A stretch of DNA of 64,000 nt from Torpedo marmorata. Lineage: Eukaryota. Each line of letters begins with the position of its first letter. The stretch's first letter is position 1. The DNA lies in assembly GCA_977017645.1 (NCBI GenBank), contig OZ360238.1:67332001-67396000 (forward strand), given 5' to 3'. The notes beneath the pieces are model-generated. The model saw only the letters and a list, made by a program, of their open reading frames with translations, was not told where the DNA came from and did not search any database. The position numbers and the translations under genes were made by a program. Below, one piece after another: positions 943 to 43,727 of this stretch.

Positions 943-1146
943 GCACAATATAAAAAATGTGCTGGAGAAACTCAGCAGGTCATGCAGCATCCTTAGGAAG
1001 TGAAGGGTAACCAACATTTCAGGCCTGGGCACTTCATCGTTCCAGGCCCAAAGCAATGGTTACCTTTTACTTCCTCAGGATGTTGCATGACCTGCTGAGT
1101 TTCTCCAGTGCATTTGTGCATTGCACTTGACCCCAGCATCTGCAAG
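943..1146. mobile_element. Penelope-derived palindromic (foldback) repeat
   Basis: GCTGGAGAAACTCAGCAGGTCATGCAGCATCC and its inverted copy GGATGTTGCATGACCTGCTGAGTTTCTCCAG; same motif flanks the GIY-YIG fragment at 45.0-45.4k. Confidence 0.7.
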
Positions 1147-1725
1147 CTTTCTTGATTAGTGGGGATCATCCAGCCTTCTTTTGCATGTAATCAGCTGTTA
1201 AGTGGCAACCTGCGACATGCACAAAACAGGTAGGAGAAATTCAGACATTAACCCAAAATGTGGTCAGAGGCAAGGCACATTATTGTGGTTACATCTACTT
1301 CAAATTTCTTGAGGCCTTATGAGCTTTAATATAAAGATTTATTTCAGTGCAACACAACGTAAAGGCCTCAATGGAATATACGAACAGATCAAAAATTGCA
1401 CGTCAATCCATTTGAGGAATCCTCACCAAGGAATGCAGAGGAAATACAGTAAATGATTAATTAGAATATTAATTTATTGTAAAATCAAGTTTGAAAACAA
1501 AGTGATAGAAGTATGAGAGGACATAAAAAGAGGCAGTGGTGGATTAACTACCACCCGGGCCCTAGGCTGAGCTTTAGTAAGCCCCCCCCTGACATTGCCC
1601 CATGGCCCCCACCCTTCGTTGAATAGAATAAAGAGAAATTGTTCCATTTGGGCGTGATGCCCTCACATATTCTAAATTTATCTGCCGGGTATGTGCTGGG
1701 AATACACCAGTTGGTGTTTGGTTGT

Positions 1726-1830
1726 GGAATCGGACATTTTGGTGCTGGACATTTTGCCGAAAAAAATGACTTTTGTAGCCCCTCGGACATTTTGGCGTCC
1801 GCAGTTTGGCGCCGGCTCTCGCATTTGGCA
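1726..1830. repeat. GGACATTTTG motif cluster, possibly the terminus of a nested MULE/foldback-type element
   Basis: GGACATTTTG three times in 1732-1795; inverted counterpart CCAAAATGTCCAGCAC at about 2511-2526. Confidence 0.5.
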
Positions 1831-1960
1831 ACAGACATGGCATGTAATTTATTATAATTTTCATTAAATATAATAAACATTAAGCATTGATTAAAATTGT
1901 TTCTTGGTGCTAACAGTTAGGCTACAACAATTTATTCACTTATTATATTTATTATGAAGC

Positions 1961-2080
1961 GAGGAGCGGCGCTTTCGGTTGTCGTGCGGGACCCTGCACT
2001 CGGGACAGCGGCTGTCGCTCTATCACTTCAAGCTGACCGACATGGCACTACGGGCGCTGGAGGCTTACCAGCGCTTGGCG
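1961..2080 (+). pseudogene. Captured ELL-family (Pol II elongation factor ELL/ELL2-like) exon 1 fragment, copy 1
   Basis: EERRFRLSCGTLHSGQRLSLYHFKLTDMALRALEAYQRLA followed by a phase-0 donor GTGAGT at 2081; resembles the recalled ELL2 N-terminus [36 protein letters not shown]; no in-frame start ATG. Confidence 0.85.
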
Positions 2081-2336
2081 GTGAGTAAGCAGCGGCGGCG
2101 GACGGTGGGAGGGAACTTGTTGCTGAGCCCTTTCGGGGTAGGTCAACGGGACAAGGGGACAGGGGGGAACCGGGTGGAGGGGACCGGATGACAGAGGGGG
2201 ACCGGGAGCGGAGGGTGATCAGGGATCATGAGGGTATCGGTGTCCGGTCCCCAGCCCCGGGACAGCCTGCCTCCGCTACCCCGAAAGGGCTCGGCAACAG
2301 GTTCCCTCCCACCGTTCACCGCCGCCGCTTACTCAC

Positions 2337-2456
2337 TGCCAAGTGCTGGTAAGCCTCCAGCGCCCGTAGTGCCGTGTCGGTCAACTTGACGTGATAGAGC
2401 GACAGCCGCTGTCCCGAGTGCAGGGTCCCGCACGACAGCCCGAAGCGTCGCTCCTC
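2337..2456 (-). pseudogene. Captured ELL-family exon 1 fragment, copy 2 (inverted)
   Basis: EERRFGLSCGTLHSGQRLSLYHVKLTDTALRALEAYQHLA followed by donor GTGAGT (2336-2331); keeps the GLSCG and HVKLT motifs. Confidence 0.85.
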
Positions 2457-2730
2457 GCTTCATAATAAATATAATAAGTGAATAAATTGTTTGTAGCCTA
2501 ACTGTTAGCGCCAAAATGTCCAGCACTAAATTTCATTAAAATCAAACAAAACTTTACCTTACAGAAGCCGTCTGCTAACCCCAAATAATTTGAAAAGTCT
2601 GTTAGTTATAAAAGGATAAATAAAATCAGTTCTAAAAAAACAGTCTCTACAGAATAACACAGGAGAAGGGAGAGTCTTTTTAAAAAATAGTAAACCTCAG
2701 CTCCACAGAAATATAGTGATAGTTAAGAGT

Positions 2731-2791
2731 CTTTCCTCCTGTGGACGCTGCGAGACCTGCTGAGTTTCTCCAGCATTTCCGTGTTTTTACT
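2731..2791. mobile_element. Short Penelope-derived terminal fragment
   Basis: GGACGCTGCGAGACCTGCTGAGTTTCTCCAGCATTTCCGTGTTTTTACT motif. Confidence 0.6.
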
Positions 2792-3510
2792 TTGCAAAAG
2801 AAGCGTGGTGCCCCTCCCCCTCAGGGTGCCCAGCGCGCAGGTGATTGACAGTTTTCATGGCCAAACCCGACTGGGAGAATGGGACACATGGTGGCGATTG
2901 GCCTGGAGGAGGGTCCAAGATAGTGACAGGTTTCCGAAGTCGAGCATTGGTGGAAGATGGGGAGCGGGGATGAGTGGGTGGGCGCTGTGTGTGATGATGT
3001 CATTACGGGAGATCACGTAGTTTAGTTGCAGTTCATGTATTCTTTTTAAGGCGGGCGAGATGGAACAGTTTCTGCACCGCTTTGCATTGTGGGTAAAAAC
3101 ACTGACATCTCTCTTGCTGTGCCCCATGTTAAGAATTCTGCTCTGGCAGCACTGCACCCCTGTGATGGGTGGATCCAGGACTAACGCGAGCCCATATTGA
3201 CATTGATGTACCAGTGGTTGTGACGGGCCCCCTTACCTTCTGGGCCCCTCGGCTTCAGCCTACTCAGCCTAATGGTTAATCCACCACTGGACAGAGATAG
3301 ATTCTTTTGGCAGTAATTAATGTTTTTCATGCTATTTAAATAACAGCTTCCATTAAGATGACACCTTAGATAAAGCAAAATTTGCTGAGGTACTTCACAG
3401 GAGCTCTGTCAAATAAAAACAAAACTGATGGTACATAGTGAGATATTTGAGCACATGATGTAAAATGGTCAAGGTGTTTCAATTTAACATCGGAGAGTTG
3501 GAAACATTTA

Positions 3511-4106
3511 TATTACGGTGACTTCGATCCAACAATAGTCACCTGGAGGCTAAGTGAGATACTTGTCTTTGACGCGTTTTAATTAATTTACTAACAAAGT
3601 CCAATATGTTCAAAACCTTTATTTACACACGTGACTTGCAGTAATCTTCAATGACTTTAATATAAACAGTTCTTGTAAACGATGTATGATGATTTTCTTT
3701 AAATGATTCTTCAAACAATTCCAAAACGATATGAAACGATGTAAAACGATGTAAAAAGTTATAAAACGCTGTAAAGACGGTCAATAAAGATGTGGAGACC
3801 TCACTCACCCTCCTAACATCTCCATCTTTCCTTTATTCTATTCCTTTCCTATTCTACCCGATTCGCGCATGCTCCGTCGCTCCCCTAACACTGCGCACCC
3901 TCCACCGCGCACACTACATCTCCCAGACTGCACCGCGCACAATGACGTCACTCCAAACTGCGCATGCGCCCGTCGGCACTCCAGCGCATGTGCAGAGCAC
4001 AGAACGGGCCGAGAACGGCCCACAGACAACGCGAGCGCTCCGAACGGGCCGACGAGACATCGGAGCGCCGCAACAATGGTAAGTTAACGAGCCTACGGCT
4101 CTTACA
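3511..4106 (-). repeat. BEL 3' LTR
   Basis: Direct repeat of 8906-9501; reads TGTAAG...GTAATA on the minus strand; internal AAACGATGTA repeats and a CpG-rich segment. Confidence 0.95.
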
Positions 4107-4529: not shown

Positions 4530-6011
4530 TCAACCAGTAAACCTCAAATCTTCCTCAGACAAAATAGATACAGTTTTTCTTTTGAATTTAACACAAGGCA
4601 CTTCTTCAGCATGTCGTTTCACTTTATTCCTTTCTTCAGTATTCCATTTCTCATGTGAAGAATTTAAACTCTTAGGATTAGAATTTGAATATTTATTTGA
4701 TCCTTTCGATTTTAAACAGGTCTGTTTAAACACTCTGGTTTCTATGGCTCTTTCCTGCAATTCTAAATCCAATTTTGCAACTTTCAATTCAGTCTCAGTT
4801 CTTTCCGAGAAATTAATAATTTGATCTGAAGTCAAAATATCATGTGATACGTTGATATTTTCATTGTCAATCCTGTTGCGACAAACTTGAAATTTTTTAA
4901 TTTCTTCATCTTGTTTGTTACATTTCTGCAATGCAATATCACATTCTTTCTGCATTGTTAATTGTTGAACATTCAATTTACATTCTTGATTGGTTTTTAA
5001 AGTCAACTGTTTTGTGTTATTAACCAATAACTTGTTCTCTTTTAAAACATTAATCTCTTCCTCCAACCTTTTACATTTTGATAATGCTGAATCTCTTTCC
5101 TCAATAACTGTATTCATTTCTTCAGCAGTTATTCTTTTCTTCCGCTTTCTGACTTTGCGAGTTTTATTTACAATTAAATCTTTCTGTTTACTGTTTTCTT
5201 GATTATCTAATATTTCCAATTCCCCTTTCAACATTTTGTTCTCTGGATTCAATTGCATTAAATTATCATTCACATTATTCTTTATTCCATCAGCACAATT
5301 TTCTGTGTTCTCCAGTTTTACATCACATTGTAACCTTTCTTCATTAGCTTTGTCTGTTGTAATCTCTGAACTACAAAATCTACATTCAGATTTGTTTTCA
5401 GTCACTTGTTTTATTCCTGTATCTGATTCAATTACACATGAATAATCAATAGTATTATTTGCAACATCTTCTAATACTTCACTTTCATCTATTTCTGACG
5501 AAATTAATTCTTTCAATGTTGTTTTAAATACCATTGATTTATTTTCACATTGATCTGTTTTCTTTTCTTCAAAAGTGATTTTCTTATTCACAGTTTTTTG
5601 CTCTTCGCTTAACTCTTCAACTTTCACAACCGAAATTCTATTAATATTTATCGCTACCTGTTCCTGAGCAATATCATTATTTCTTTCCATTGGTCCATTG
5701 ATTGTCCAACCAAGTATGGTTTTAACAGCATAAGGTCCATTCCTTTTACTCTCTATTACTTCTTTTGGTACCAAAATCTTTGGCACATCTGAACCAATCA
5801 GCATTTCTATCTCAGAATTAATTTCAGGTAAATAAACCTTCCACAGATAAGCTAAATGATGGATATCCCTTTGATGAGGAATATTTCCTTCATTCACAGG
5901 CATAGTCTTCTGAGTATATACACTTGGAAGATCACAAAAAATTTTGTCATCCAATCCAGCAACCTCTAAGCCTGAAACAATGTTAGTTTCAACAACCTTT
6001 TCTTGTCCCAT
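4530..6011 (-). CDS. BEL protease C-terminal part fused to an acidic linker and a MIPOL1-like coiled coil (493 aa)
   Basis: N-terminal LIGSDVP...GPYAVKTILGWTINGP is the BEL protease tail; no YxDD, RNaseH or DDE motifs; NPENKML...RITAEEMNTVIEERDSALSKCKRLEEEI resembles recalled vertebrate MIPOL1. Confidence 0.8.
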   Translation of the reverse strand: MGQEKVVETNIVSGLEVAGLDDKIFCDLPSVYTQKTMPVNEGNIPHQRDIHHLAYLWKVYLPEINSEIEMLIGSDVPKILVPKEVIESKRNGPYAVKTILGWTINGPMERNNDIAQEQVAININRISVVKVEELSEEQKTVNKKITFEEKKTDQCENKSMVFKTTLKELISSEIDESEVLEDVANNTIDYSCVIESDTGIKQVTENKSECRFCSSEITTDKANEERLQCDVKLENTENCADGIKNNVNDNLMQLNPENKMLKGELEILDNQENSKQKDLIVNKTRKVRKRKKRITAEEMNTVIEERDSALSKCKRLEEEINVLKENKLLVNNTKQLTLKTNQECKLNVQQLTMQKECDIALQKCNKQDEEIKKFQVCRNRIDNENINVSHDILTSDQIINFSERTETELKVAKLDLELQERAIETRVFKQTCLKSKGSNKYSNSNPKSLNSSHEKWNTEERNKVKRHAEEVPCVKFKRKTVSILSEEDLRFTG

Positions 6012-8517
6012 GGTTTTTTAACATAATTCTTGATCTTTTTCCTTGAATATTAAGTTTATTCATTAGTCCTTCCGTGCAAAAAGATGCAGTGCTGCCTGGG
6101 TCTAAAAATGCATATGTGTTTACTATTACATCCCCTTTCTTGGCCTTGACTTGTACAGGCACTATTGAAAGTTTGCAGTTATTCACCCCGGCCCCAGTAA
6201 GACCACTTGTCTGAACCGAGGTTATAACATTATTTTCTGTTGTTTCCTTTGTTTCTGTTTGCTCCTTTTCCAATTCCTTGTTTCTGTTATGGATATGCAA
6301 AATTCTAGGATGTTTCAAATTGCATATGTTACAATTAATTCGCTTCTCGAAGTTTTTACTGATGTGCCCTTTACACAGACAGCTAAAACATATTCCATTT
6401 TCCTTTAAGAAAGCGATCTTTTCCTTATGTTCCTTCTTTTCCAATCGTAAACACATTTCCAAAGCATGTCCACCTTTACAGAACAAACAACTCTTTTCAT
6501 TAGGCAAACTTTCCTTTTCCTTATTTACTTTGTCATTTTCTTTACTTATAACTTGCACATTAGTAGCAAAAGTACTCCTTTTTAATTTCGGACTAGACTG
6601 TGTGTTAGACTTCTTTACATCTTTGCCCATTGAATTATCTCTGGTATTTCCATATAGTGGATCTGTTTCAACGTACACTTGTCGTTCAAGAAAATTTACC
6701 AAATCCTTTAAGGCAATTTTTCGACCATAATTTATTTGTAAATCACAAGCCAAATTTCTCCATCTATCCCATAACTTGTAAGATAATTTTTCTAAGATGA
6801 TTCGCATATTACTATGCACTTCAAGCTCACGAATATTATCGATTTCTTCCATAGCATTACAACATCCTCTTAAAAACAAATTATATTCTTGCAGAGCCTT
6901 TACATCATTTTGTTTTATTGATGTCCATTTAAGAGCTTTATCCATATAAGCTAAAGCAATTCGATGTTTGTTGCCAAAATATTGTTCCAATAAAGCCTTA
7001 GCTTTGTCTAATCCTCTTTTTGAAGACATTTGTTTACAACTCTTTACCAGTTCTTTTGGATGTCCCTTTGTGAACATTTCCAAATAATAAAGACATTCAT
7101 CACGATCTTGGCATTTATCTTCAATATTGTGTTTGAAAGATCTCATAAATGATTGATATTGAAGTGGATCACCATCAAAAGTTTGTATCTCTTTCTTGGG
7201 TAAAGAAGAGAGAGACTGTAACTGAAACAATGATGCAGCAATTTCATTTTGTCTTTCCTTGGACGACAATACATTGCTCTGTTCACCGTCTCTTGTTGCA
7301 TGCAATGTATCTGGAAACCTCACTGGTGTAGTTTCTTCCATATTTCTGATGCTTGACTCATATAACAAAGAAGCTGCTTCGTTCGACTGAACCCAAGCCG
7401 CAGCTTTGCTTTCAGATGTTACTATTGGTACATGTGACTCGATACCAATATGCTCTTGAAAGGTTTGTCCTTGTATATGTAAGTTTTGTATCCTTGGTTC
7501 TAAAATATCTATCCTTTTGGTTGGTTTCTTTTCCTGTGACTCCTTTTTTAAATATGACCTTTTATTATCAGACAATTTAGATAATTTACTGCTAGCACCA
7601 GATACCATTGAGCCTTTTATTGCTTTCTTTTTTGCCTTGGCAATAGCAATGTTTGCTTCCAGCTCCTGCTTTTCTTTTCTCTGCCTTAGCTGCTCCTTCT
7701 CTTGTCTTAGCTGCTCCATTAGCTGCTTCTCATTTTGTCTTAGCTGCTCCTCCTCTTGTCTTAGCTGCTCCTTTAGCTGCTTCTCATTTTGTCTTATCTG
7801 CTCCTCCTTTTGTCTTAGCTGCTCCTTTAGCTGCTTCTCATTTTGTCTTATCTGCTCCTCCTTTTGTCTTAGCTGCTCCTTTAGCTGCACCTCCTTTTGT
7901 CTTATCTGCTCCTCCTTTTGTTCTAAAATATGTTTCTCCTTAAGCATTTTTTGTTGTGCAAAAAGTGTGGCCAAGTCAACTTCAATCTTTGTATGTGACG
8001 ATGCAGAACTTGAAGTACGAGAAACTCTGGAGCTCGAACCAGAACTTCTTTTGCTTCTCCTGCTTTCAGCATTTGAGACACTGTCACTTGCTTGTATTTC
8101 GTCCTGCAGTTCATATGTTGTCTTCATACTTACCTCTTTATCCAATTCGAATTGTATATCCTTTGCATCTTCAATCACTTTAATTTCTTCAACATTTGGT
8201 GACACAATTTCAGCCATTTCCACGTTATCTTCTTGTTCAACTAATGAAGCTGCCTCTTCATCCTTTGCCTGCTTCAATCTTTCGATAAGAGCCCTTTTAT
8301 TTCCACTTATGTCCTTTTTCAGTCGCTTCAATTCTTCTTTAATATCCGAAACCTTCATGTCTTCAATACGTTGGTCCTCAACAGCAACATCAGCGGTTGC
8401 TGCGTCAGCTGCTGATACATCAGTAGCTGCTGTATCAGAGGCTGCTGCGGCCATTTTACTCGTCTTGTTCCTCTTTCCTTCAAGCATACACAACACTAGC
8501 CAAACAACAGTCCCCAA
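5989..8517 (-). CDS. BEL gag-protease: SAP-like N-terminus, heptad repeats, DUF1759-like capsid, Zn knuckles, aspartic protease
   Basis: FDGDPLQYQSF capsid motif; CLFCKGGHALEMC, CFSCLCKGH and CNICNLKHPRILH knuckles; YAFLDPGS active site; frameshift at an A6 run near 6013-6018. Confidence 0.9.
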   Translation of the reverse strand: MGTVVWLVLCMLEGKRNKTSKMAAAASDTAATDVSAADAATADVAVEDQRIEDMKVSDIKEELKRLKKDISGNKRALIERLKQAKDEEAASLVEQEDNVEMAEIVSPNVEEIKVIEDAKDIQFELDKEVSMKTTYELQDEIQASDSVSNAESRRSKRSSGSSSRVSRTSSSASSHTKIEVDLATLFAQQKMLKEKHILEQKEEQIRQKEVQLKEQLRQKEEQIRQNEKQLKEQLRQKEEQIRQNEKQLKEQLRQEEEQLRQNEKQLMEQLRQEKEQLRQRKEKQELEANIAIAKAKKKAIKGSMVSGASSKLSKLSDNKRSYLKKESQEKKPTKRIDILEPRIQNLHIQGQTFQEHIGIESHVPIVTSESKAAAWVQSNEAASLLYESSIRNMEETTPVRFPDTLHATRDGEQSNVLSSKERQNEIAASLFQLQSLSSLPKKEIQTFDGDPLQYQSFMRSFKHNIEDKCQDRDECLYYLEMFTKGHPKELVKSCKQMSSKRGLDKAKALLEQYFGNKHRIALAYMDKALKWTSIKQNDVKALQEYNLFLRGCCNAMEEIDNIRELEVHSNMRIILEKLSYKLWDRWRNLACDLQINYGRKIALKDLVNFLERQVYVETDPLYGNTRDNSMGKDVKKSNTQSSPKLKRSTFATNVQVISKENDKVNKEKESLPNEKSCLFCKGGHALEMCLRLEKKEHKEKIAFLKENGICFSCLCKGHISKNFEKRINCNICNLKHPRILHIHNRNKELEKEQTETKETTENNVITSVQTSGLTGAGVNNCKLSIVPVQVKAKKGDVIVNTYAFLDPGSTASFCTEGLMNKLNIQGKRSRIMLKNHGTRKGC
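7680..7920 (-). repeat. Coding tandem repeat in gag (EQLRQ/EQIRQ coiled-coil units)
   Basis: Repeated TTGTCTTA(G/T)CTGCTCCT units on the + strand. Confidence 0.9.
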
Positions 8518-8905
8518 TGGACCAGCGGCAGCAATTCCAATCTGTGTTCTTACTTGCTAAAGATACACAGAAGGAGTCCACAGACTTATGCCTACCACTT
8601 CAAATGACTGTAATGTGCTGCTATCCACAAACGAGTTTCAACCACAACATCCGTCAATAATATCACTAATTTTCCAAAAATAGTTTCTCCAACGTATTTA
8701 TAGGACACTTTACTATAAGATTTGAAGCTTTAAATCCCTCTCTGGCTGTTATTCATGGCAGATGGATGTGGATTACAAACTGCCCCCAACTCGAGGCATC
8801 TCCAAGATGGCCACCATTTTATATATCAGTCCAAAGCACAGAGAGTTTTTTCTATCTTCTTTCTTTCAAACTTCTGTTCCAAAACAGCCAGCTCTTTATT
8901 GACTA

Positions 8906-9501
8906 TATTACGGTGACTTCGATCCAACAATAGTCACCTGGAGGCTAAGTGAGTTACTTGTCTTTGACGCGTTTTAATTAATTTACTAACAAAGTCCAAT
9001 ATGTTCAAAACCTTTATTTACATACGTGACTTGCAGTAATCTTCAATGACTTTAATATAAACAGTTCTTGTAAACGATGTATGATGATTTTCTTTAAATG
9101 ATTCTTTAAACAATTCCAAAACGATATGAAACGATGTAAAACGATGTAAAAAGTTATAAAACGCTGTAAAAACGGTCAATAAAGATGTGGAGACCTCACT
9201 CACCCTCCTAACATCTCCATCTTTCCTTTATTCTATTCCTTTCCTATTCTACCCGATTCGCGCATGCTCCGTCGCTCCCCTAACACTGCGCACCCTCCAC
9301 CGCGCACACTACATCTCCCAGACTGCACCGCGCACAATGACGTCACTCCAAACTGCGCATGCGCCCGTCGGCACTCCAGCGCATGCGCAGAGCACAGAAC
9401 GGGCCGAGAACGGCCCACAGACAACGCGAGCGCTCCGAACGGGCCGACGAGACATCGGAGCGCCGCAACAATGGTAAGTTAACGAGCCTACGGCTCTTAC
9501 A
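8906..9501 (-). repeat. BEL 5' LTR
   Basis: Direct repeat of 3511-4106; followed on the minus strand by TAGTCAATAAAG. Confidence 0.95.
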
Positions 9502-39142: not shown

Positions 39143-42100
39143 TGTGGTAAACCACTGTATTTGTATTGGTGTGTTGTGGTGTGCTCTAGTATTGCAGGCC
39201 GGACTGATACCTACTCCCTCCCCTCCCTTGGGTGTCCAGGTAATCCCTCCCCTTCCTCACCTGAATAAAGGCCACTGTATTTGGCCCACCCCCTTCAGTC
39301 CGGATCTGATCGAGTGGTAAGCACGGCTCCATTCTTTGATAATAAAAGCCTATGATTTACTCGCTCTCTATGATTCAGTCTTTGAGTAATCATTGATAGG
39401 CCTATCAATTTTATTATCAAAGTTGTTTTTTTTTCCGATGGAAGGAGCACTACGGCCAGCTATCCTCGACCTCGATCACCTAGCTCCTGATGCCGGTAAC
39501 GTCTTTGAACACTGGTTGCGATGTCTTGAATCGTTTATGGAAACCATCGAAGCCGTAACCGAAGCGCAGCGACTGAAGGTCCTCATCTCCAGGGTAAGCT
39601 CCCGTGTGTACGTTACCATAAGAGACTGTGCGGATTACACGAGGGCTATGGAGGCCCTGAGAGGAATCTACCTGTCGCCGGTCAACGCGGTCTACGCACG
39701 GTACCGACTCTACACCCGAGGGCAGCGAGCAGGGGAATCGACCGTTGAATATGTCAGGGCAATACAGTCACTAGCACGGGCGTGCGACTGTAAAGCCCAG
39801 ACTGCGGAGGAACACCTGCGAGTGGTGGAGCGAGATGCCTTCATCATGGGGCTCAGGTCGGTATATGTGCGCCAGAGACTGCTAGAGCACGCCGACCTGG
39901 ACTTTAAAGGGGCCGTTGCGATGGTCTGCACGCTGGAGAACGCACAAAGGAACTCCGACGCCATGCAACCCCGCGACTCTCAGGCCACAACGTGGTCAGC
40001 CCCATCCCCCAGCCCTGCTAACGAAATGACCGCCGCTGTCGCCATCCGCGCCGACCCGACCGCTACCGCGATCCTCACCGCCGCTGCAGCCAGCCGCGAG
40101 CCCGAGAAGTGCTACTTCTGCGGGCTGGAGAAGCACCCGCGGAAGCGCTGCCCGGCCCGCGACGCGACTTGTTCCGGATGCGGCAGAAAAGGCCACTACG
40201 TGAAGGCCTGCCGCTCCAAGTCGCGCCCGGGCCTGAACAGCGCCGCGTGCGAGCTGAGGGGGCAGCCATCCGCTTACCTGAGGTTGCTTCCGGAGTCGGC
40301 CTCGTGCGAGCTGCGGGGGCAGCCATCTTTCCGCCGGGAACTTCCGGAGTCGACCTCGTGCGAGCCGCGGGGGCGGCCATCTTTAATGCTGGCACTTCCG
40401 GCGCCGCCCGCATCGGTACTTCCGGCCATACTGCCGCCGCCATCTTCCAGCAGCGACACGTGCGAGCCACGGGAGCGGCCATCTTTGTCGGTGGTGGAGG
40501 ATGAAGATGAAGAATACTTAGCGACGCTTGCCTCAGTCACCCTCGACCAGAGTGTCCCGCACCAGCTATCAAGATCGATGATGGACATTCTGGTGGAGGG
40601 CCACAAGACCACATGCCTCTTCGATACGGGCAGTACGGAGAGCTTCATCCACCCGGACACTGTCCAGCGCTGTGGCCTCACTACCATACCGGTAAGCCAG
40701 AGGGTGGCCATGGCGTCTGGGTCACACACAACAGACATCCGGGGGGCTTGTGTGGCTGATATTGTGGTACAGGGGACAAAGTACAAACATTTTTCCCTCT
40801 TTATTATGGATCGTTTATGTGCACCTGTATTGTTGGGACTCGATTTTCAGAGCCACTTGCGCAGTGTCACTATGCGGTACGATGGTCCGCACCCGGCGAT
40901 CACTGTAGTCAACCACCAGTTCCTTAATAATGAGCCCCAGACTACCTGTGGTCTCTCCACTCTTAAGATCTCGCCTCCGTCGTTATTCGCCAACCTGACC
41001 CCGGACTGTAAGCCTGTGGCGACCAAGAGCAGGCGTTACAGCTCGGGGGACAGGGCGTTTATCAAGACGGAGGTACAGAGGTTGCTGCAAGAGGGGATTA
41101 TTGAAAGGAGCAATAGTCCCTGGAGGGCCCAGGTGGTCGTAGTAAAAGGGGCCAAGAGTAGGATGGTGGTGGACTACAGTCAGACGATTAACCGGTTCAC
41201 CCTGTTGGACGCATATCCGCTACCGAGGATTGCGGATATGGTTAATCAGATCGCCCAATATAAGGTCTTTTCCACAATCGACCTAAAGTCCGCGTACCAT
41301 CAGCTCCCTATCCGTCGGGAGGACCGCCAGTACACTGCGTTTGAGGCTGACGGGAAACTGTTCCACTTCCTGCGGGTTCCGTTCGGGGTTACTAATGGTG
41401 TTTCTGTGTTCCAGCGGGAAATGAACAACATGGTAGAGGTATATAAACTTCAAGCCACCTTCCCGTACCTGGACGATATCACCATCTGTGGGCTGGATCG
41501 TCAGGATCACGACGCCAATCTCCGGAAGTTCCTGCAGGCGGCTAAAGCACTAAACCTGACATACAATAAAGATAAATGTGTGTTCGGTACCACGCGCCTC
41601 GCTATTTTGGGGTACGTGGTAGAGAACGGGGTGATTGGGCCAGACCCCGATCGCATGCGCCCCCTACTGGAACTTCCACTACCCCCCACCCCCAAAGCAC
41701 TCAAGCGATGCCTCGGTTTCTTTTCCTACTATGCACAGTGGGTACCGAATTATGCAGATAAGGCCCGACCCCTGGTGAAATCCACCGTATTCCCCCTCGA
41801 CTCGGAGGCACGTAAGGCCTTTGACCTTATAAAGGGGGACATTGCGCGAGCAACAATGCACGCGGTGGATGAGGAGATACCTTTCCAGGTGGAGAGTGAC
41901 GCGTCGGACTTCGCACTGGCTGCTACCCTCAACCAGGCGGGAAGGCCGGTGGCGTTTTTCTCCCGCACCCTTCAAGGCCCCGAAATTCGGCACTCCGCCG
42001 TGGAGAAAGAAGCCCAGGCCATTGTGGAAGCAATCAGGCACTGGAGGCACTATCTCGCAGGCAAGCATTTTACCCTGCTGACCGACCAACGCTCGGTAGC

Positions 42101-43727
42101 ATTCATGTTCAGCAACCAGCAGCGGGGTAAGATCAAAAATGATAAAATTATGATGTGGAAAATAGAACTCTCCACCTATAACTACGACATCCGCTATCGG
42201 CCCGGGAAGCTCAATGAGCCCTCAGACGCTCTATCCCGGGGATCATGCGCCAGCGCGCAGATCGACCGATTACACGCCCTACATGACCTCCTCTGTCACC
42301 CAGGAGTTACCAGGCTCTTCCACTTTGTGAAGGCTCAGAACCTGCCATACTCCCTGGAAGAGGTCAGGGCTTTGACCAGAGACTGTCGGGTTTGCGCAGA
42401 GTGCAAACCTCAGTTCTACCGCCCGGACAGGGCACAGCTGATCAAAGCCACGCGCCCCTTCGAACGTCTCAGTATTGACTTCAAGGGGCCCCTTCCCTCC
42501 ACGAACCGCAACGTGTACTTCCTAAACGTTGTCGACGAGTACTCGCGGTTCCCCTTTGCCATCCCCTGCCCCGACACGTCAGCTGCCTCAACCATAAAGG
42601 CTCTCCACCAGGTATTCACGCTGTTTGGTTTCCCAAACTACATACATAGCGACCGGGGAGCAGCTTTTATGAGTGAGGAGCTGCGCAGGTACCTGCAGGA
42701 CCGAGGCATCGCCACCAGCAGAACTACAGCATATAACCCCCGAGGAAATGGACAGGTGGAAAGGGAGAACGCCACGGTATGGAAGGCCGCGCTCCTAGCC
42801 CTTACGTCAAAGGGCTGGCCGGTCTCCCGCTGGCAAGACGTTCTCCCCGAAGCCCTCCACTCTATCCGGTCCCTTTTGTGCACTTCCACCAACGCAACCC
42901 CTCATGAACGATTTTTTTCCTTCCCCAGGAAGTCGTCCACCGGAACCTCCCTACCTGCCTGGCTGATGTCCCCGGGACCAGTGCTGCTCCGGAACCACCT
43001 TCGGGGCAGCAAATATGAACCAACGGTTCAGAGGGTGCAGTTGGCGCACGCCAACCCCCAGTATGCATATGTGGTCTTCCCGGATGGACGAGAAGACACC
43101 GTCTCCATACGAGACCTTGCGCCCGATGGGGCGCCAGAGCGGCATTCCGACGGGCAAGACCACAGACTGCAAAACCACCCAACACAACCCCTTCCTAACA
43201 TCCCATCCGATGTGCTAGACCCCGCCCCCTCAACGCAAGCACGCCGAGAGGCCAGGCAGGAGGCACAGACGAACCTACCACCTCCCCCATCACCAATTTC
43301 CCCAGCACCACAACCCGACCCGCCACTACGCAGGTCCCAGCGGAACATTCGGCCGCCGGATCGCCTCGACCTGTGAGGAGGGGTCTATATGTATATATGT
43401 ATATATGTTTTCCGCATGTAGAGTGGTCACGTCACCCCGCTGGACTCTTTCTAAAAAGGAGGGGTGAATGTGGTAAACCACTGTATTTGTATTGGTGTGT
43501 TGTGGTGTGCTCTAGTATTGCAGGCCGGACTGATACCTACTCCCTCCCCTCCCTTGGGTGTCCAGGTAATCCCTCCCCTTCCTCACCTGAATAAAGGCCA
43601 CTGTATTTGGCCCACCCCCTTCAGTCCGGATCTGATCGAGTGGGAAGCACGGCTCCATTCTTTGATAATAAAAGCCTATGATTCACTCGCTCTCACAGTC
43701 TTTGAGTAATCATTGATAGGCCTATCA
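39143..43727 (+). mobile_element. Full-length, apparently intact Gypsy/Ty3 LTR retrotransposon
   Basis: LTRs 39143-39407 and 43469-43727 (TG...CA, nearly identical); 5-bp TSD CTTTG; PPT AAAAAGGAGGGGTGAA; single open gag-pol ORF. Confidence 0.97.
39438..43376 (+). CDS. Gypsy gag-pol polyprotein (gag, two Zn knuckles, protease, RT, RNase H, integrase)
   Basis: First ATG at 39438; CYFCGLEKHPRKRC and CSGCGRKGHYVKAC; LFDTGS; VPFGV and YLDD; ESDASD; HDLLCHPG...CRVC; IDFKGP, SDRG, NGQVER. Confidence 0.95.
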   Translation: MEGALRPAILDLDHLAPDAGNVFEHWLRCLESFMETIEAVTEAQRLKVLISRVSSRVYVTIRDCADYTRAMEALRGIYLSPVNAVYARYRLYTRGQRAGESTVEYVRAIQSLARACDCKAQTAEEHLRVVERDAFIMGLRSVYVRQRLLEHADLDFKGAVAMVCTLENAQRNSDAMQPRDSQATTWSAPSPSPANEMTAAVAIRADPTATAILTAAAASREPEKCYFCGLEKHPRKRCPARDATCSGCGRKGHYVKACRSKSRPGLNSAACELRGQPSAYLRLLPESASCELRGQPSFRRELPESTSCEPRGRPSLMLALPAPPASVLPAILPPPSSSSDTCEPRERPSLSVVEDEDEEYLATLASVTLDQSVPHQLSRSMMDILVEGHKTTCLFDTGSTESFIHPDTVQRCGLTTIPVSQRVAMASGSHTTDIRGACVADIVVQGTKYKHFSLFIMDRLCAPVLLGLDFQSHLRSVTMRYDGPHPAITVVNHQFLNNEPQTTCGLSTLKISPPSLFANLTPDCKPVATKSRRYSSGDRAFIKTEVQRLLQEGIIERSNSPWRAQVVVVKGAKSRMVVDYSQTINRFTLLDAYPLPRIADMVNQIAQYKVFSTIDLKSAYHQLPIRREDRQYTAFEADGKLFHFLRVPFGVTNGVSVFQREMNNMVEVYKLQATFPYLDDITICGLDRQDHDANLRKFLQAAKALNLTYNKDKCVFGTTRLAILGYVVENGVIGPDPDRMRPLLELPLPPTPKALKRCLGFFSYYAQWVPNYADKARPLVKSTVFPLDSEARKAFDLIKGDIARATMHAVDEEIPFQVESDASDFALAATLNQAGRPVAFFSRTLQGPEIRHSAVEKEAQAIVEAIRHWRHYLAGKHFTLLTDQRSVAFMFSNQQRGKIKNDKIMMWKIELSTYNYDIRYRPGKLNEPSDALSRGSCASAQIDRLHALHDLLCHPGVTRLFHFVKAQNLPYSLEEVRALTRDCRVCAECKPQFYRPDRAQLIKATRPFERLSIDFKGPLPSTNRNVYFLNVVDEYSRFPFAIPCPDTSAASTIKALHQVFTLFGFPNYIHSDRGAAFMSEELRRYLQDRGIATSRTTAYNPRGNGQVERENATVWKAALLALTSKGWPVSRWQDVLPEALHSIRSLLCTSTNATPHERFFSFPRKSSTGTSLPAWLMSPGPVLLRNHLRGSKYEPTVQRVQLAHANPQYAYVVFPDGREDTVSIRDLAPDGAPERHSDGQDHRLQNHPTQPLPNIPSDVLDPAPSTQARREARQEAQTNLPPPPSPISPAPQPDPPLRRSQRNIRPPDRLDL

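Follow-up and report, generated by a model that had tools for sequence, protein, structure and literature searches.

A captured ELL-family exon in the genome of Torpedo marmorata is probably carried by a foldback Pack-MULE nested in a hAT-type MITE

An ELL-family exon that forms a long inverted repeat in the genome of Torpedo marmorata is carried by a Mutator-like element (MULE), and not by the hAT-type element that encloses it. It lies at positions 1534-3289 of the window, by which we mean the whole stretch of 64,000 nucleotides that was analysed (contig OZ360238.1, positions 67,332,001 to 67,396,000 of the forward strand), and this segment is a composite in which an inner MULE (1725-2532) is nested within an outer hAT-type element (Table 1). 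Taking structure and origin together, we consider it highly probable (roughly 0.88) that the inner element is a non-autonomous Pack-MULE which entered a hAT MITE and was later mobilised by it.

Table 1. Features of the composite element and its flank, in window coordinates.
Feature	Position	Strand	Remark
hAT left flank, decayed 8-bp TSD	1526-1533		5/8 match against 3290-3297
Outer hAT-type MITE, left 15-bp TIR	1534-1548	+	
hAT MITE left body	1534-1724	+	joined directly to 2528-3289 in empty copies
9-mer ahead of MULE	1716-1724		left target copy of the MULE
Inner MULE left end	1725-1906	+	terminus, tandem subterminal units, AT-rich stretch
Tandem subterminal units of MULE left end	1732-1797		
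Left arm	1904-2141	+	inverted duplicate of MULE right subterminal region and captured ELL fragment
ELL-paralog exon 1 in left arm	1959-2080	+	from inside codon 5 to exon end, without ATG
68-bp arm extension	2074-2141	+	private to window copy; contains GT donor at 2081
Loop	2142-2275	-	more parent intron-1 sequence, GC-rich repeat units
Right arm	2276-2514	-	original capture and MULE subterminal sequence
Right-arm contents	donor 2331-2336; exon 2337-2458	-	intron 1 start, donor, exon
MULE right end, truncated	2459-2532	+	
hAT MITE right body	2528-3289	+	
Piece (about 60 bp) of very abundant short repeat	2730-2791		within hAT right body
hAT MITE right 15-bp TIR	3275-3289	-	

Much of this architecture had been described in an earlier note on the same DNA, which reported perfect 15-bp TIRs enclosing a foldback with 238-bp arms, each arm bearing 40 codons of an ELL-family N-terminus and a GTGAGT splice donor, and all of these features are present. 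The arms are about 94% complementary and are separated by a loop of 134 nt; both match positions 1-38 of the Pfam ELL model PF10390 (35 and 45 bits, cut-off 22.9), the 40 codons lie at 1961-2080 (+) and 2456-2337 (-) with the donor directly after each, and the amino-acid differences listed between the arms (FRL/FGL, HFK/HVK, DM/DT) are real. About 55 bp at the start of each arm is transposon sequence and not ELL, and the AT-rich stretch of the MULE left end is also present in the transposase-bearing copy described below. Within the loop, 2255-2275 extends the right arm's match to the parent gene, while further in the identity is about 73%. At the other side of the nest, the MULE terminus, its right 9-bp TSD and about 15 bp of hAT were deleted at a 5-nt microhomology (2528-2532), hence this TSD of the nested MULE cannot be observed directly. 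The fold check that had been proposed gave a predicted RNA hairpin of -547 kcal/mol (z = -45.8 against 20 shuffles), and an Rfam scan of window 1400-3400 returned no matches.

The outer element is non-autonomous, about 1.0 kb long, has 15-bp TIRs and is also found empty. Its TSD is 8 bp long, perfect in 36 of 53 cases and within one mismatch in 49 of them, with none of the 53 passing at 7, 9 or 10 bp; the flanking 8-mers of the window copy itself match at five of eight positions. An 8-bp TSD is a hallmark of hAT elements, and we call the element hAT-type on the basis of TSD length and TIR form only. Searches with its outer parts gave 2945 and 2794 first-look candidates, from each of which the best 40 were scored, and 31 of the 51 TIR-to-TIR elements proved to be empty copies (0.64-1.3 kb, mainly 0.7 or 1.0 kb). 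Other insertions with the same TIRs and different TSDs, which the earlier note had suggested looking for, are thus numerous, each with its distinct 8 bp. No autonomous hAT partner was enclosed by these TIRs at the 30 loci examined among 150 listed PF05699 loci (2134 candidates). One candidate, L197/L209, has a TIR 1 kb from a hAT transposase; this TIR faces away from it and belongs to a neighbouring MITE. The abundant short repeat found at 2730-2791 also makes a hairpin with 74-bp arms at window 955-1115.

Elsewhere in the window, an open frame of 1328 aa at 39390-43376 (+) has protease, RT, RNase H and integrase domains, and is thus a polyprotein of LTR-retrotransposon type. At 4530-8556 (-) there are two long AT-rich ORFs (855 aa and 495 aa), the longer of which has a SAP domain along with a tandem repeat (7685-7950); similar 10-bp arrays flank them at 3723-3775 and 9118-9171, and the region probably represents a mobile element that has long terminal repeats.

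Loci fetched with the arms fell into two classes, one matching the whole 1756 bp and the other about 1725-2530 alone. Free inner elements, which lack hAT flanks, have ends of their own (CGGAATC-type on the left and TAGACCC-type on the right, with tandem subterminal units) and 9-bp TSDs; they measure 606-1033 bp and hold host sequence between the MULE ends, the transposase having been lost. Among 42 MULE end-pairs, 27 have a 9-bp TSD within one mismatch, against four that pass at 8 bp, one at 10 bp and none at 7 or 11 bp. The same TSD length was found for nine of the 13 ELL-carrying free rows, with TSDs differing between copies; two of the four failing rows seem to be off by one base, and the other two are mispairings in one locus. 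The right-end pattern of this MULE occurs 582 times genome-wide (control 1), and ELL is present in four of the first 30 loci with it.

These observations bear directly on the label "Pack-hAT" under which the element had originally been described, that is, on the idea that the hAT itself captured the ELL exon and made the hairpin. It is true that the hairpin sits between hAT-type TIRs and that at least 146 hAT-MULE composite junctions exist genome-wide (control 0). However, the hAT is found empty, the ELL hairpin is found in places that have no hAT, bounded by MULE ends and 9-bp TSDs, and ELL adjoins MULE and not hAT sequence. We thus gave up the label, as the capturing element is the nested MULE, which moves alone, and direct capture by hAT is in our view highly improbable. 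The nested reading is also consistent with the composite junctions themselves: a fixed 9-mer directly precedes the MULE in composites, and the same left junction was found in 18 of 20 readable composites and the same right junction in all 20, which argues for one nesting event that was frozen and then spread by hAT.

The transposase that belongs to these ends was found among 25 loci with the PF10551 domain. Twelve of them have an inner-element end at most 1.5 kb away, and 15 are 81-100% protein-identical to the core of locus L159, its own locus included. In L159 both MULE ends surround FLYWCH (E 1.6e-14) and MULE (E 5.5e-13) domains, and D, D, CxxH and E can be aligned, which we take to be the MULE transposase motifs. 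A LINE insertion and a stop break up L159, whose own TSD is imperfect, and no intact MULE transposase was found among the 25 PF10551 loci examined. Its termini are inverted arrays of tandem subterminal units (about 100-120 bp, 70-80% identity) in which the terminal 7 bp are mismatched, and such arrays vary between copies of the family. Two deleted copies, L163 and L128, have perfect 9-bp TSDs. Relative to the two distinguishable MULE ends the transposase of L159 lies opposite to those of L163 and L128, which implies that the interior was inverted between the repetitive ends. The inner element is thus a MULE by its TSD length (MULE TSDs are given as 8-11 bp in the part of PMC6446971 cited here), by its cognate transposase and by its long and variable TIRs.

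The relatives of this transposase are 44-59% identical, the closest being proteins from ENA/Logan assemblies, a mantis shrimp (58%) and aphids (44-50%). A snake protein with KRAB, FLYWCH and MULE domains (P0129) is 50% identical to the L159-type core; it is a possible transposase-capture fusion, and it shows that among vertebrates the FLYWCH-MULE lineage is not unique to Torpedo marmorata. With these as the closest transposases, it is plausible that the lineage was acquired by horizontal transfer.

As regards the cargo, a PF10390 search of the 6.2-Gb genome gave 139 matches, from the best 138 of 407 candidates scored, and revealed three multi-exon ELL genes (C2, C54 and C68), beside which there are more than 100 matches to exon 1 only. 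Aligned with C68 over 220 columns of exon 1 and early intron 1, the window arm is 86.8% identical, a 16-bp GGC-repeat difference included, and the family majority sequence differs from the C68 exon at two of 120 bases; the C54 exon matches the arm at about 75% over some 50 bp only, and the C2 exon does not match it. The captured fragment therefore consists of about 120 bp of exon 1 and about 200 bp of intron 1 of a third ELL paralog, C68, a gene with downstream exons and with no matched MULE ends within 10 kb around its exon 1. An ELL or ELL2 parent had been expected; an ELL-family parent was indeed found, but it is this third paralog and neither C54 (ELL) nor C2 (ELL2). The nearest proteins to the captured sequence belong to rays and sharks (93% at most), and while the Callorhinchus ortholog (P0008) is named ELL3, other orthologs are named ELL or ELL2. 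As C68 is neither ELL nor ELL2 here and one source name points the same way, it is probably ELL3 as far as sequence comparison can tell.

The intron is retained and the parent lies elsewhere, so the capture occurred at the DNA level and was not a retrocopy, as had been proposed from the window sequence. The captured stretch starts inside codon 5, which leaves the parental ATG and promoter out of the cargo; an in-frame TGA stands ahead of the exon at 1955-1957, and the ATG formed by filler sequence is out of frame with the ELL codons. Host cargo, an unlinked intact parent and transposition after capture together make the inner element a Pack-MULE. At its exon 1 (L041) C68 itself has expanded GC-rich minisatellites, both upstream and in intron 1, and a GGC run longer than that of the captured copy, so that the captured copy may reflect how the C68 intron looked at an earlier time.

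We counted at least 426 ELL arms by MULE-ELL junctions genome-wide (control 2), that is, at least about 210 elements. The family exists beyond this assembly, since the MULE-ELL junction is bridged by contigs of three DNA-type sequencing runs, labelled as three organisms, and the empty hAT joint is also present in all four runs compared; one contig of run X1 passes from the right TIR into the flank, its 26 bases on the element side being too few for a bridge. Copies were compared at loci best matching the window's own arm, and are thus a biased sample. Outside CpG sites the arms differ from the majority by 2-3%, and the hAT bodies by a median of 2.7% in 18 empty and 2.2% in 19 composite copies, these being best matches and thus biased young. 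Twenty exact composite junctions cluster on C80 (10.08-13.12 Mb), where the four fetched copies (L174-L177) are segmental duplicates in both orientations, 95-99% identical over kilobases, and therefore not independent insertions.

The 34 cores compared comprise three single-armed copies, 29 with a short left arm and a shared filler, one unclassed core and the window copy. Where foldback copies switch, the single-arm ones still read as the autonomous element does. The usual left arm is at most about 165 bp long and ends before the donor in a filler of about 16-19 nt, which is absent from the stretch of parent intron searched; in the window copy it is swapped for 68 bases from the right arm. One could imagine the opposite order, with the long-armed, two-donor form being ancestral and the form with arms of about 165 bp derived from it by deletion with filler, and a single deletion could in principle do this. 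Against it, the window copy is a composite and thus derived, the short arm and filler are common to free and composite copies (29 of 34 cores), and the genome has a single long-arm junction, which makes this order very unlikely. Some left-end length variants are also common to free and composite copies, and the order that we propose therefore needs recurrent deletion or conversion.

The uniqueness of the extension junction, together with the fact that no long read across the extension was seen, could also suggest an assembly artefact, either in the palindrome as a whole or in the 68-bp extension alone. The extension, however, carries three private transitions on each arm relative to the family majority, which would not be expected of an artefactual fold-back and indicates that it is old, and the shorter hairpin recurs at many loci. 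The palindrome described in the earlier note is thus genuine, and an artefact is exceedingly improbable.

The foldback Pack-MULE nested in hAT may have arisen in four steps, the order of which is read from junctions and not from a tree. First, a FLYWCH-MULE would have left an excision gap, or replication would have stalled in its repetitive ends, and repair may have taken the third ELL paralog as its new template, at the GC-rich 5' end of that gene; a stretch of about 315 bp, made up of exon 1 without its start codon, the donor and the beginning of intron 1, would thus have been copied, giving a single-arm Pack-MULE. Second, the junctions suggest another template switch at a repeated subterminal motif, by which an inverted second copy of the right end and most of the exon would have been made, so that a foldback with arms of about 165 bp resulted. 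The single-arm and foldback forms both transposed with 9-bp TSDs. Third, as the shared junctions show, one foldback copy entered the hAT MITE of about 1 kb, a microhomology deletion took its right terminus and with it MULE-type movement, and the composite was amplified between the hAT TIRs with 8-bp TSDs. Fourth, a switch within the hairpin probably added 68 bp to the left arm of the window copy around the time of its insertion.

The same hand-over from MULE to hAT happened independently at least in one more case. A second MULE derivative, with a GC-rich cargo of 690 bp (L167:955-2690 and L168 on C1, with related L169, L170 and L172), lies in the same hAT family, about 15 bp away from where the ELL-MULE is inserted; it has both ends and a perfect 9-bp TSD, and is found at two loci with different 8-bp hAT TSDs. 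A search with its cargo (as in L134) gave seven matches at six loci, with no parent gene and no obvious frame. Further MULE derivatives (L130, L138, L140, L145, L153 and L155) bear a 30-bp GC-rich tandem repeat, which in L130 is preceded by telomere-like GGGTTA units and is possibly captured subtelomeric sequence. Five others (L141, L147, L148, L151 and L154) have in common an internal segment of about 280 bp that is absent from the transposase loci examined.

A separate question is whether the hairpin family does anything for its host. With the origin unchanged, it could modulate the ELL3-like gene through endo-siRNAs, piRNAs or ADAR substrates formed from read-through transcripts, or copies within introns could supply their splice donor. 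The predicted fold is very stable, hundreds of arms are nearly identical to the parent exon, the GT donor of the right arm is intact in 26 of 32 copies, and Tan et al. 2021 (PMC8277862) regard plant Pack-MULEs as a possible source of small RNAs. On the other hand, the arms are not homogenised and the exon is unconstrained. Of 281 substitutions in 60 arms 109 are synonymous, as compared with 102.7 +/- 7.8 expected from a null in which base and CpG context were matched (P = 0.23); a naive pN/pS of 0.6, which could have been taken for selection on the ELL frame, vanished under this null. Frameshifts occur in ten and stops in four of the 60 arms. Divergence between the arms is 4.9% within one copy and 5.1% between copies, which rules out concerted evolution and means that arm pairing is not maintained.

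Moreover, CpG sites decay at about four times the rate of the others, which is what methylated, silent DNA should show; the cargo lacks the promoter of the parent, and none of the 17 window ORF translations scanned matches a host-gene family beyond transposon-type domains. A strong donor in either orientation, which the earlier note had inferred, holds for the window copy and not for the other cores: most copies have one donor, and only one core of 34 has two. Run X11, which is RNA by guess, has a small number of short contigs from the element, of which one is equally explicable as parent mRNA exon; these contigs were counted neither for nor against expression. A regulatory function of the hairpin family is thus unlikely, although it keeps some weight with us. 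The ELL cargo is most likely a selfish, silenced and neutrally decaying passenger and any RNA effect incidental; read-through would give a strong predicted hairpin homologous to parent exon 1, and an incidental small-RNA effect is possible.

Gene capture by MULEs is well known in plants. Like the Pack-MULEs of rice and maize as described in the parts cited of PMC8277862 and PMC6446971, the Torpedo element is a non-autonomous MULE with a GC-rich host fragment of about 300 bp (the rice median is 305 bp, PMC8277862), an unlinked parent on another chromosome, and several copies with distinct TSDs; unlike them, it is found in a vertebrate in hundreds of copies, its cargo is inverted-duplicated into a long inverted repeat, and it was re-mobilised by a second superfamily. 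In the cited account (PMC8277862), Ssk-FB4 of Drosophila melanogaster provides an animal precedent: it is likewise a foldback-type MULE with repetitive, rearranging ends (TSDs 9-10 bp), and captured a host gene by template switching (the FoSTeST model) before transposing, as we propose here. Ssk-FB4, however, has four polymorphic copies of a near-complete gene, whereas the Torpedo element is old, high-copy and carries an ATG-less exon fragment in a hairpin. Pack-hAT-N8_XT of Xenopus tropicalis (PMC8277862) is similarly a vertebrate TIR element with a host 5' fragment amplified by hAT, but it has three copies and arose by direct hAT capture, with a hairpin not mentioned in the portion cited, while the Torpedo hAT carries a nested Pack-MULE. 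With the FLYWCH-type MULE transposases of invertebrates the Torpedo MULE shares both domains, differing in its presence in a cartilaginous fish genome and in its hundreds of derivatives.

The surveys cited, in the parts used here, report no Pack-MULE among 100 reference genomes from animals and few, low-copy cases of multicopy capture in vertebrates (Tan et al. 2021, PMC8277862), judge vertebrate MULE reports to be misidentified while leaving absence open, and recognise no vertebrate MULE transposase as credible (Dupeyron et al. 2019, PMC6446971). The Torpedo genome, in which a MULE family has a recognisable transposase, hundreds of derivatives flanked by TSDs and a branch that captures genes, speaks directly to both. 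Our search of the accessible literature found no vertebrate Pack-MULE and no description of this family, the consensus of which Repbase, Dfam, supplements or subscription journals may already hold. The novelty lies in a high-copy vertebrate foldback Pack-MULE re-mobilised by hAT, the type of capture itself being known. All intermediates are preserved (transposase-bearing, single-arm, foldback, nested composite and lengthened arm), and template-switch capture, growth of an arm and hand-over between superfamilies can therefore be traced in one genome.

A bolder reading, which we regard as rather improbable, is that this first high-copy vertebrate Pack-MULE, of a lineage acquired horizontally from invertebrates and with its foldback copies spread by two different transposases, gives rise in the germline to small RNAs that are antisense to the ELL3-like gene's exon 1, and that its silencing tunes the host gene. 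Several hundred near-perfect hairpins of one exon offer a clean test of parent-gene small-RNA silencing in a vertebrate; if this reading were true, transposon silencing would adjust a Pol II elongation gene in this fish lineage.
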